Below, piece after piece: positions 4,930-34,906 of a DNA stretch of 64,000 nucleotides (position 1 is its first letter; every line of letters starts with the position of its first letter). The notes beneath the pieces were generated by a model. That model was given only the letters and a program-made list of their open reading frames with translations. It searched no databases and was not told where the DNA came from. The position numbers and the translations under genes were made by a program. The DNA lies in NCBI RefSeq assembly GCF_003334405.1, contig NZ_QOWM01000010.1, one strand, 5' to 3'. The stretch comes from Escherichia coli. GTDB lineage: Bacteria; Pseudomonadota; Gammaproteobacteria; Enterobacterales; Enterobacteriaceae.

Positions 4930-5577
4930 TTATTCGTTAGTGGCAGGATTACGAAGCGTGGGGCACAGGAGATACATCTCCAGTAAGATGGCAACGTAAT
5001 CGCGGGCTTCTTTTTTAAGATCAAAAGATTGCGGGGCAAAGAGCCAGTTTTCCATCAGGCCGGAAATATAGCCGCGCATAATAATTGCTGCGCGACGCGT
5101 CATTAAATCCGCAGGCAACATTTTCGCTTCAATACAATGTTTTAACGTTTGTTCTATACGGTCATAACTTTCCAGACAGAGATTACGTTGTGCCTGTTGC
5201 ACAACAGCCATTTCTCCGACAAATTCGCATTTGTGGAATATAATCTCCATCAATAATCGACGCCGTTCTTCTGTCACCGTGGATTCAAGAACATGAATTA
5301 ATATCTCTCTTAATACTGAGAGTGGATCGCCAGGGAATTTTGCCTGATACTCAAGCTCTAGTTCACCAATATTGGATTCTGACAGTTCCCAGATCTCACT
5401 GAACAAATCCGACTTGTCTTTAAAATGCCAGTAGATTGCACCGCGCGTAACGCCAGCTGCTTTTGCAATCTCGCCCAGCGAGGTGGATGATACCCCCTGC
5501 TGTGAGAAAAGACGTAGAGCCACATCGAGGATGTGTTGGCGCGTTTCTTGCGCTTCTTGTTTGGTTTTTCGTGCCAT
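4930..5577 (-). CDS. acrR: TetR-family repressor AcrR
   Basis: 215-aa ORF with N-terminal TetR helix-turn-helix; divergent from acrAB. Confidence 0.95.
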
Positions 5578-17085: not shown

Positions 17086-18372
17086 TTACGCGTTATAGGC
17101 ATTCTCGCCGTGGCTGTTGACATCCAGCCCTTCTCGCTCCTGCTCTTCCGGTACACGCAGACCAACCGTCAGATCCGCCAATTTGTAGCCGATAAATGCC
17201 ACAACACCGGACCAGACGATCGTAATGGCGATGCTTTCCAGCTGTACCAGCAACTGATGGCCCATCGTCACACCTTCAGCGAAGCCCACGCCGCCCAGCG
17301 AGCTGGCGGCAAAAATCCCGGTCATGATACAGCCGACAATGCCACAAACGCCGTGCACACCGAAGACATCGCAGGGATCATCCACCCGCAGCAAGCGTTT
17401 GAGCATGGTAACGCCCCACAAGCCCGCCAGACCAGCTACCACGCCGATAATCAACGCGCCGCCAACCCCAATGTAGCCGCAGGCTGGCGTCACGCCGACC
17501 AGGCCGGCAATCGCGCCAGAACACGCCCCCAGCAGTGAAGGCTTACCACGCAGCGCCCATTCACCGAAGATCCAGCCAAGAATTGCCGCCGCCGTTGCGA
17601 CCACAGTATTCACAAATGCCAGTGCCGCGATTTCATTCGCCGTGCCCGCTGACCCGGCGTTAAAGCCAAACCAACCGATATAGAGAATGGCAGTCCCGGT
17701 GAAGACCATCGGCAGGTTGTGCGGTTTAAACGCCTCTTTACCGAAGCCCACGCGTTTTCCTATCAGATACGCGCCCACCAGACCGGCGATTGCGGCGTTA
17801 ATGTGCACCACGGTGCCACCCGCGAAATCCAGCGCACCGTGAGAAGCCAGCAAACCACCGCCCCACACCATATGCGCAATCGGAATGTAAGAGAGCGTCA
17901 GCCATACCACCACGAAAATCAACACAGCTGAGAAGCGGATTCGTTCCGCCAGCGCCCCAACTATCAAGCCGACGGTAATGCAGGCAAACGATCCCTGAAA
18001 CGCCACGTGGATATACTGATAAATGCTGCCCATCACCGCCGTCAGTTCGATGTTTTTCAGCATCAACCAGTTAATGTTGCCGAAGAAGTTGTTGCCCTCA
18101 CCAAACGCCAGCGAGTAACCGTAAACCACCCAGAGAATACAGACCAGTGCAAATGTCACCGTCACCTGCGTCAGCATCGACAGCACGTTTTTGCCGCGAA
18201 TCAACCCACCGTAAAACAGGGCAATCCCCGGAATAGTCATAAACAGCACCAGCGCAGTACAAATCATCATAAACGCATTGTCGGCTTTATCGGCCACCGC
18301 AGGTGCAGCCATTACCAGTCCCGGAAGCATCGCCAGTGAAGCAAGCCCAGTTTTTATCGTCGCTATCTTCAT
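17086..18372 (-). CDS. amtB: Ammonium transporter AmtB
   Basis: 428-aa ORF with signal peptide and 11 TM helices, Amt/MEP family; immediately downstream of glnK. Confidence 0.96.
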   Translation of the reverse strand: MKIATIKTGLASLAMLPGLVMAAPAVADKADNAFMMICTALVLFMTIPGIALFYGGLIRGKNVLSMLTQVTVTFALVCILWVVYGYSLAFGEGNNFFGNINWLMLKNIELTAVMGSIYQYIHVAFQGSFACITVGLIVGALAERIRFSAVLIFVVVWLTLSYIPIAHMVWGGGLLASHGALDFAGGTVVHINAAIAGLVGAYLIGKRVGFGKEAFKPHNLPMVFTGTAILYIGWFGFNAGSAGTANEIAALAFVNTVVATAAAILGWIFGEWALRGKPSLLGACSGAIAGLVGVTPACGYIGVGGALIIGVVAGLAGLWGVTMLKRLLRVDDPCDVFGVHGVCGIVGCIMTGIFAASSLGGVGFAEGVTMGHQLLVQLESIAITIVWSGVVAFIGYKLADLTVGLRVPEEQEREGLDVNSHGENAYNA

Positions 18373-18401
18373 TTTTCGTTCCTGTTGCTGTGTGCCAGAG
18401 A

Positions 18402-18740
18402 TTACAGCGCCGCTTCGTCGGCTTCGCCGGTACGAATACGAATGACGCGTTGCAATTCAGCGACGAAGATTTTGCCGTCGCCAATTTTTCCGGTGTAAGC
18501 CGCCTTACTGACGATATCGATCACTTCATCGAGTTGGTCATCAGCAATCGCCACATCAATTTTTACTTTTGGCAGGAAATTGACGCTGTATTCCGCCCCC
18601 CGGTACAGCTCGGCATGCCCTTTCTGACGCCCGAAACCTTTCACTTCGGTGACGGTCAGGCCCTGAATACCAATGGAAGATAACGCTTCACGAACGTCTT
18701 CCAGCTTGAATGGTTTGATTATCACGGTCACCAGCTTCAT
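18402..18740 (-). CDS. glnK: Nitrogen regulatory protein PII-2 (GlnK)
   Basis: 112-aa PII protein MKLVTVIIKPFKLEDVREAL... with T-loop containing GAEY; the track ORF 18402..18878 is an upstream extension, the real start is the ATG at 18740. Confidence 0.95.
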   Translation of the reverse strand: MKLVTVIIKPFKLEDVREALSSIGIQGLTVTEVKGFGRQKGHAELYRGAEYSVNFLPKVKIDVAIADDQLDEVIDIVSKAAYTGKIGDGKIFVAELQRVIRIRTGEADEAAL

Positions 18741-18791
18741 AGATCCCCTCCGGTCAGAATTCGGTAATGGTTCTGCTACACGAAGAAGGTA

Positions 18792-18809
18792 TTGCAAGCG
18801 GTGTGCCAG
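18792..18809 (-). promoter_or_regulatory. Sigma-54 (-24/-12) promoter of glnK-amtB
   Basis: Minus strand reads CTGGCAC-accgc-TTGCA (GG-N10-GC spacing) about 50 nt upstream of the glnK ATG; a TGCAC...GTGCA NtrC-like palindrome lies further upstream at 18862..18878. Confidence 0.75.
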
Positions 18810-18920
18810 AAATGAAAAACGAGAAAGAGAGCAGGAAGTTAAGAAGTTTGAAAATGAAAACGCACTATGACAGTGCACAGTGCGTTACATTTTTGCACCA
18901 ACGATGAAATATTGCGCTAT

Positions 18921-22467
<3,547 letters not shown>

Positions 22468-26977: not shown

Positions 26978-29423
<2,446 letters not shown>

Positions 29424-34661: not shown

Positions 34662-34906
34662 TTCCGTCTCCTGGATAAAATTGAAAAAACCTGCTGTACC
34701 GATTGTAACCTTATGGACGGATTATCAGCTAGTCCCTGTGTTATGGGTACGGCATCACCATATTTCAAGCATAACAATCTTTTGTTGTTACGCTAACACC
34801 GAAAGAGGCTTTTCGCACGGTTCCATGCAAAATTCATGACAAAAAAAAGCCCACCACCTGGCGGTGACGGGCCTTTGTGCGAATTTAGCGCGTTATGCTG
34901 CGTAAA

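Follow-up and report, generated by a model that had tools for sequence, protein, structure and literature searches.

Genomic context of the mdlB–glnK intergenic region

The window, that is, the whole stretch of 64,000 nucleotides analysed here, derives from the E. coli chromosome and contains a 180-bp gap between mdlB and glnK (18741..18920). All genes and regulatory features assigned below lie on the minus strand. Downstream of the gap are glnK (18402..18740), which encodes the 112-aa protein PII-2 from an ATG at 18740, and amtB (17086..18372), which encodes an ammonium transporter of 428 aa; they are the first and second genes of the operon driven by glnKp. The glnK start codon is preceded by a Shine–Dalgarno (SD) sequence, GGAGGGG (18745..18751), which was conserved in the alignment described below. 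On the other side, the stop codon of the co-directional ABC transporter gene mdlB (18921..20702) forms the upstream boundary of the regulatory gap. This arrangement was not confined to E. coli: in a set of related glnK loci taken from a scan of one genome per species, each of the 15 Enterobacterales loci examined had mdlB as its upstream neighbour.

The window was base-for-base identical to K-12 MG1655 over 18721..18940, and a 901-bp query spanning the gap showed 100% identity to many complete E. coli genomes in which mdlB, glnK and amtB are annotated. The K-12 reference record has no feature annotated inside the mdlB–glnK gap. A comparison with glnKp of E. coli K-12, represented by the sigma-54 ChIP site OS03, revealed the same sequence, the same 17-mer core and the same flanking genes, with zero differences. 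The gap is therefore almost certainly glnKp, the E. coli glnK–amtB promoter, which is served by sigma-54 and NtrC under nitrogen starvation. glnKp serves as a textbook reporter for the activity of NtrC and controls the GlnK–AmtB pair for ammonium sensing and uptake. The promoter and its enhancer are already known, and the identification itself is correct but ordinary.

Sigma-54 core promoter

The gap contains a sigma-54 (RpoN) −24/−12 core, CTGGCACACCGCTTGCA, at 18793..18809, an assignment based on the motif, a position-weight matrix (PWM), identity to the 17-mers from ChIP-seq (OS03) and genomic SELEX (gSELEX), and conservation. The preliminary description, made from the sequence alone, had proposed a −24/−12 element with GG-N10-GC spacing on this strand, and this was borne out. 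The core reads CTGGCAC, ACCGC and TTGCA in turn, with GG at 18807/18806 (−25/−24) and GC at 18795/18794 (−13/−12) and exactly 10 bases between them. It matches the pattern TGGCAC-N5-TTGCW with GG and GC 10 bases apart. The exact form TGGCAC-N5-TTGCA occurred only once in the 64-kb window, at the glnK site; two further matches each carried one mismatch.

For quantitative scoring, a sigma-54 PWM was built from the 41 other intergenic-sense ChIP-seq motifs listed in Table 1 of Bonocora et al. (2015), with the glnK site left out, and both strands of the window were scanned. The glnK site scored 16.2 bits and ranked third in the window, so that the RpoN scan already suggested as a check gave it a higher value than the training-set median (15.8 bits; range 8.4–21.5 among these bound sites). 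The highest score in the window belonged to a site upstream of clpP that is itself a member of the training set. Scores of 16.2 bits or more arose somewhere in 17.5% of shuffled 64-kb windows. Therefore, the sigma-54 motif alone is not decisive, and its significance is carried by its place, orientation and conservation. The element lies in sense orientation inside the 180-bp gap, 61 nt upstream of glnK. Motif orientation and distance to glnK were likewise correct in all 16 Enterobacterales/Orbaceae loci compared, and TGGCA..TTGC was invariant in the alignment of 13 Enterobacterales.

Published binding data on the same sequence agree with this assignment. Peak OS03 of the sigma-54 ChIP-seq data, upstream of glnK, carries exactly CTGGCACACCGCTTGCA (PMC4591121). 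Genomic SELEX yielded an RpoN-holoenzyme peak in the mdlB>glnK gap (PMC8743547), and the supplement to that study gives the same 17-mer as the glnK RpoN motif. Counting from the C at −12, the transcription start (+1) is predicted at 18782, which would leave a leader of 42 nt upstream of the glnK ATG. The ‘distance 42’ entered for glnK in Table 1 of Bonocora et al. is in agreement with this position, as is the published location of a CT-rich region ‘centred at −4’, which is discussed below.

NtrC-type enhancer

Two NtrC-type elements were found upstream of the core by scoring 17-mers against the consensus TGCACCAnnnTGGTGCA, which has 14 specified positions. The proximal dyad, TGCACTGTCATAGTGCG (18861..18877), is centred at about −87, matches the consensus at 10 of 14 positions, and is both conserved and helically phased. 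The distal block, TGGTGCAAAAATGTAACGCA (18881..18900), is also conserved; it scored 9/14 in the register 18897..18881, which is centred at −107, 20 bp from the proximal centre. In an alternative register (18910..18894, centre −120), the block scored 8/14 and displayed a perfect TGGTGCA right half, leaving the register ambiguous. The distal GTGCA half-site itself occupies 18898..18894.

The preliminary description had placed NtrC-like half-sites at 18862..18878 and 18891..18897, some 55–90 nt upstream of the −24 element. The distance was correct, and the half-sites are present to within about one base (18877..18861 and 18898..18894), but their match to the motif did not rise above chance. In the window, 32 17-mers scored at least 10/14 against TGCACCAnnnTGGTGCA, and the NtrC boxes thus do not stand out by motif match alone. 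Similarly, TGCAC-N7-GTGCA with up to two mismatches showed no enrichment in the window and was, if anything, under-represented. The exact boxes are therefore putative, assigned from motif, geometry and conservation together. They are made credible by their spacing, conservation and helical phase and by published binding peaks.

Two further candidates were rejected. A third NtrC-like 17-mer at 18929..18913 (9/14), overlapping the mdlB stop codon, was not kept in E. albertii and was out of line with the conserved third box of other genera; it was treated as a chance match. Within mdlB, a 17-mer that fits the consensus at 11/14 positions (19063..19079) is found again in other genera and encodes the conserved ABC-ATPase segment D-T-I-L-V-L, and it was treated as a coincidence arising from coding constraint.

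NtrC ChIP-seq in nitrogen-starved cells placed peak 1 at glnK–amtB (PMC4066584). The peak window, K-12 471741-471821, corresponds to 18741..18821 and thus covers the core promoter and leader, 40–80 bp from the proposed boxes; accordingly, it confirms the locus and not the individual boxes. Genomic SELEX also detected an NtrC peak, and a joint RpoN-holoenzyme/NtrC peak, in the mdlB>glnK gap (PMC8743547). A further report, with reference to Atkinson 2002, ranks the glnK enhancer below that of glnAp2 in strength (PMC10657418). The poor consensus match of both boxes (10/14 and 9/14) suggests a weak glnK enhancer, which fits this description. According to published work, the weak enhancer makes glnK fire later than glnA, at higher levels of phosphorylated NtrC (NtrC-P).

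Conservation and helical phasing of the enhancer

In an alignment of 13 Enterobacterales species, mean column identity was 42%. Against this background, the GTGCG half of the proximal dyad was invariant and GCAC nearly so; upstream of the SD and ATG, the invariant islands comprised TGGCA..TTGC of the core and the right half of the proximal dyad. Within the distal block, TGGTGCAA was invariant in eight Enterobacteriaceae, and the alternative register reached 11/14 in Citrobacter and Enterobacter Ag1. The proximal box was retained in 15 Enterobacterales loci. In Yersinia, Rahnella, Acerihabitans and Photorhabdus, the dyad was kept and was usually nearer to the consensus than in E. coli (10–12/14), and the box of a Klebsiella-type lineage, TGCACCGTTGTGGTGCA, constituted a near-perfect NtrC site (13/14). 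Scores of 11–13/14 were thus among those of the orthologous boxes in other genera. Among the sampled divergent E. coli strains, substitutions were found in the spacer, with none in the box block or the −24/−12 element. This spacer between enhancer and core (18810..18850), presumed to be the looping segment, is pyrimidine-rich and poorly conserved, and its length varies between genera; the C+T fraction over −50..−1 is 0.76.

With the −12 element as reference, the proximal box is positioned at −87 in Escherichia, −97 in Citrobacter, −118 in Superficieibacter, −129 in the Klebsiella-type lineage, −130 in Klebsiella sp. BIGb0407, −131 in Photorhabdus, −140/−141 in Enterobacter, Yersinia and Acerihabitans, and −142 in Rahnella. 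In helical turns, the differences between these box–promoter distances were close to whole numbers (Rayleigh p ~0.008, taking 10.5 bp per turn), as judged from only seven lineage values and from a predicted, not mapped, reference point. An eighth distance, the 129 bp of the Klebsiella-type lineage, amounts to 12.29 turns, within the phase range of the others. The pairing of the proximal box with a second one 20 bp upstream was also seen in Enterobacter BIGb0383, Citrobacter, Yersinia and Rahnella. A third box, situated about 62 bp upstream of the proximal one, occurred in Enterobacter BIGb0383 and Bisph1, Yersinia, Rahnella and Acerihabitans; E. coli offered no convincing counterpart.

Terminator-like hairpin overlapping the enhancer

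The DNA of the NtrC boxes also encodes a predicted terminator-like RNA hairpin, AACGCACUGUG/CAUAGUGCGUU followed by UUUUCAUUUU (18851..18886), with an 11-bp stem and a 6-nt loop. This structure, flagged by a promoter/terminator scan, begins 35 nt past the mdlB stop codon and is made of the right-hand halves of both NtrC boxes, the inter-box spacer and the T-run that follows. Its predicted free energy was −14.6 kcal/mol, the 81-nt fold had a z-score of −2.95, and the tail forms the U-tract UUUUCAUUU. In E. coli, no other hairpin resembling a terminator lies between mdlB and glnKp. An Rfam scan of 18300..19300 at E ≤ 1 identified no known RNA family, the sole match being a spurious one to a eukaryotic snoRNA. 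Term-seq supplements, which are possibly incomplete, yielded no mapped 3′ end for mdlB, and no discussion of an mdlB terminator was found in the literature searched.

Escherichia, Citrobacter, Enterobacter, Superficieibacter and a Klebsiella sp. shared the long hairpin and T-run; Yersinia, Rahnella, Acerihabitans and Photorhabdus lacked them and retained just the short dyad. The Klebsiella-type lineage has lost the long stem, and a separate GC-rich hairpin, GGCCGCTTTGCGGCC, followed by T6, lies directly upstream of the −24 element, at −38. Such complementarity between lineages hints that the presence of a terminator at some place in the gap has been under selection. Across eight Enterobacteriaceae, 93% of cells were paired and one base pair alternated between CG and UA (four versus four species), a result equalled by 5 of 500 shuffles. 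In the switching pair, one base lies in the inter-site spacer and the other at position 12 of the proximal box. The switch probably reflects a single evolutionary event, and the support from covariation is therefore modest. Taken as a model built on predicted folds, the glnK NtrC enhancer might double as the intrinsic terminator of the mdlAB transcript in Escherichia, Citrobacter, Enterobacter and their relatives; we regard this tentatively, at somewhat less than an even chance.

The palindrome and T-run at 18851..18886 could instead be the mdlAB terminator and nothing else, their likeness to NtrC boxes being incidental and NtrC acting from elsewhere or from solution. Such an explanation would accommodate the 11-bp stem with its U-run 35 nt after the mdlB stop codon, the uniqueness of this structure between mdlB and glnKp in E. 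coli, the CG/UA pair that differs between clades and links the inter-site spacer to a box, and the finding that the NtrC consensus match is not significant by itself. Nevertheless, it is very unlikely, because the boxes are conserved and phased. The dyad is kept in Yersinia, Rahnella, Acerihabitans and Photorhabdus without the extended stem or T-run, and the Klebsiella-type box reaches 13/14 even though the long hairpin has been lost. Moreover, the box holds its helical phase with the sigma-54 promoter, for which a terminator provides no reason; conservation of the face of the helix is a need of a short-loop enhancer and is not expected of a mere terminator. The NtrC ChIP-seq and gSELEX peaks at the locus also speak against a terminator without an enhancer. 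Of the two readings, a dual role as enhancer and terminator is the more likely.

Possible insulation from upstream transcription

A second element that may bear on upstream transcription is the CT-rich anti-Shine–Dalgarno sequence CCTTCTTC (18782..18789; −7..+1), which belongs to the published glnKp ‘insulator’ (10.1101/086108). Levy et al. (Amit laboratory; 10.1101/086108) reported that a 50-bp stretch of glnKp, if transcription reaches it from upstream, silences the gene that follows, in an rpoN-independent and orientation-dependent manner, and attributed this silencing to CT-rich anti-Shine–Dalgarno motifs, above all one centred at −4. glnKp is the founding example of these insulators, and CCTTCTT (18789..18783) is the counterpart of the 7-nt region centred at −4. 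Their experiments relied on synthetic constructs in which the ribosome-binding site was that of mCherry or GST, whereas the pairing with the native glnK SD considered here is a folding prediction.

The sigma-54 transcript carries only the last base of this element (the C at +1, 18782), whereas read-through transcripts carry all of it. In the predicted fold of the read-through RNA, CCUUCUUC (18789..18782) pairs with GGAGGGG (18751..18745) with a probability of 0.8–0.99. The predicted mean probability that the SD is unpaired was 0.01 in the read-through RNA versus 0.38 in an RNA starting at 18782. Accessibility as low as this was obtained with none of 100 random 50-mers from the locus and with 9 of 100 shuffles of the same 50 nt; thus, composition (76% C+T) explains much of the SD sequestration. 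With composition taken into account, sequestration was only weakly conserved between species: it was strong only in E. coli, E. albertii and Enterobacter sp. Ag1 and mostly weaker in other genera.

Nitrogen control of glnK–amtB

Published expression data link the promoter to nitrogen supply. glnK mRNA was not readily detected in a glnG deletion strain (PMC4066584). NtrC-specific activation at this promoter, expressed as glnK transcripts for each molecule of NtrC, was about 400-fold higher in ammonium starvation than in medium rich in ammonium, and the glnK promoter has been described as exclusively dependent on NtrC phosphorylation (PMC3870243). In Salmonella Typhimurium, the glnK–amtB promoter (STM0462) occupies the orthologous position with the motif TGGCACATCCTTTGCAAT, which differs from that of E. 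coli by a few substitutions in the N5 spacer. The STM0462 promoter was enriched in sigma-54 ChIP-chip, and its reporter was rpoN-dependent and induced by nitrogen limitation (PMC3844500). On the sequence identical to the one studied here, sigma-54 binding, NtrC binding to the region, and dependence of expression on NtrC and nitrogen starvation have thus all been shown. The earlier suggestion of nitrogen-limitation control of glnK–amtB is accordingly supported by ChIP-seq, gSELEX and the NtrC- and starvation-dependent glnK mRNA. Recognition of glnKp from raw sequence validates that earlier reading and adds no new biology.

Bonocora et al. stressed that many sigma-54 binding sites may never yield transcription (PMC4591121), and mdlB is co-directional and only 180 bp away. 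The −24/−12 element might accordingly be a non-productive sigma-54 site, with glnK–amtB transcripts stemming from mdlAB read-through or from a sigma-70 promoter that has escaped recognition. The probability of this is slight in the extreme, given that glnK mRNA needs both NtrC and nitrogen starvation and that the Salmonella orthologue, chosen for its lack of a predicted sigma-70 promoter, is rpoN-dependent in reporters. A promoter scan of 18300..19300 detected no sigma-70-like promoter. Expression by read-through is further opposed by the predicted sequestration of the SD in the read-through RNA and by the silencing of read-through expression by glnKp in constructs. That the sigma-54 and NtrC motifs are chance matches with no regulatory role, as the PWM scores of shuffled windows and the commonness of NtrC-like 17-mers in the window might suggest, is next to impossible in view of their invariance across genera amid drifting intergenic sequence, their correct orientation and distance to glnK in 16 of 16 Enterobacterales/Orbaceae loci, and the direct binding data on the identical sequence, with which published ChIP-seq and gSELEX have already refuted it.

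With glnKp read as an NtrC-activated sigma-54 promoter, regulation would proceed as follows. Sigma-54 RNA polymerase binds at 18809..18793 in a closed complex that is unable to open alone. When nitrogen is scarce, NtrB phosphorylates NtrC, and NtrC-P would oligomerise on the pair of imperfect dyads, which adjoin each other and are centred at about −87 (18877..18861) and −107 (the 18900..18881 block). From there, it would contact the polymerase by looping out the pyrimidine-rich spacer of about 50 bp, a looping geometry that we infer from the arrangement of the sites. ATP hydrolysis by NtrC-P would then open the promoter, and transcription starting near 18782 would give GlnK and AmtB.

Comparison with glnAp2 and implications

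The closest parallel is glnAp2, the E. coli paradigm of NtrC/sigma-54 control, which like glnKp combines a −24/−12 core with NtrC-P bound to paired upstream dyads and activates transcription through looping and ATP hydrolysis. In glnAp2, the high-affinity sites number two, with centres at −140 and −108, and they are joined by governor sites of low affinity and by glnAp1, an overlapping sigma-70 promoter. In contrast, the boxes of glnKp are weaker and closer (10/14 and 9/14; about −87 and −107), and neither governor sites nor a sigma-70 promoter accompany them. This is in line with the description of glnKp in the literature as a ‘simpler’ promoter with a weaker enhancer than glnAp2. Unlike in E. 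coli, where it lies at −87, the proximal glnK box of Enterobacter, Yersinia and relatives is found at −140/−141.

The sole angle that may be new is the overlap between the NtrC enhancer and a terminator of mdlB. If this overlap is real, the hairpin and the anti-Shine–Dalgarno element (−7..−1) would form a two-layer insulator that keeps glnK–amtB silent unless NtrC-P fires the sigma-54 promoter. If confirmed, one 40-bp stretch would carry two overlapping codes, one read as DNA by NtrC and the other as RNA for termination of upstream transcription, and it would provide a compact example of insulation between tightly packed co-directional operons.

Predicted RNA elements overlapping the glnK promoter region

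An 11-bp hairpin followed by a U-run was located on the minus strand at 18851..18886, built on the NtrC boxes themselves, with the mdlB stop codon 35 nt before it. This structure may be the intrinsic terminator of mdlB, overlapping the glnK enhancer. Hairpins of this type were found in Escherichia, Citrobacter, Enterobacter and Superficieibacter and were missing from the Yersiniaceae-type genera compared; a Klebsiella-type lineage carried a separate GC hairpin in its place.

The published anti-SD insulator of the sigma-54/NtrC promoter of glnK-amtB (glnKp) occupies 18782..18789 (minus strand), its partner being the glnK Shine-Dalgarno at 18745..18751 on the same strand. In the read-through RNA, the native Shine-Dalgarno was predicted to be sequestered by the insulator (p 0.8-0.99); no such sequestration was predicted for the sigma-54 transcript. 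Much of the predicted sequestration is accounted for by pyrimidine-rich composition.

Other sigma-54 and NtrC-like matches

The highest score in the window on the sigma-54 position-weight matrix belonged to TTGTCATGAATTTTGCA upstream of clpP, which is itself a member of the training set. This sequence (34826..34842, minus strand) is the sigma-54 ChIP-seq site OS02 (Bonocora et al. 2015). Another published ChIP-seq site, the intragenic IA05, corresponds to TTGGCGCGTTTCTTGCG at 5536..5552 (plus strand), antisense within acrR; it scored 14.6 bits and has acrA 156 bp downstream. A further match, CTGGCATTATTAATGCT at 27199..27215 (plus strand), scored 16.6 bits, just over the glnK site. The searched Bonocora ChIP-seq tables do not list this match, which probably arose by chance or goes unbound. 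It lies antisense within a 123-aa ORF (27030..27401, minus strand).

Within mdlB, GACACCATTCTGGTGCT (19063..19079, minus strand) matched the NtrC consensus at 11/14 positions. This match, which precedes the proximal NtrC box by approximately 200 bp, was found again in other genera. The stretch codes for a conserved part of the ABC-ATPase (DTILVL), so protein coding probably explains its conservation.

Apparent loss of a third NtrC-like box in E. coli

Most differences between L088 and L087, a long-read metagenome contig of the same lineage, are single bases missing from homopolymer runs in L087, where the amtB gene calls were also fragmented. Since these differences look like assembly error rather than biology, L087 was excluded from the distance analysis. 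In many Enterobacterales a third NtrC-like box, of which TGCACCAAAATCAGGCG and CGCACCATAATCAGGCA are examples, occurs upstream at a fixed distance. In six glnK loci of related genomes (L003, L004 and L008-L011) it precedes the proximal NtrC box by approximately 62 bp; in L088 its position is -191, where it overlaps the stop codon of mdlB. This third box, together with approximately 54 bp of the enhancer-promoter spacer, appears to have been lost in E. coli.
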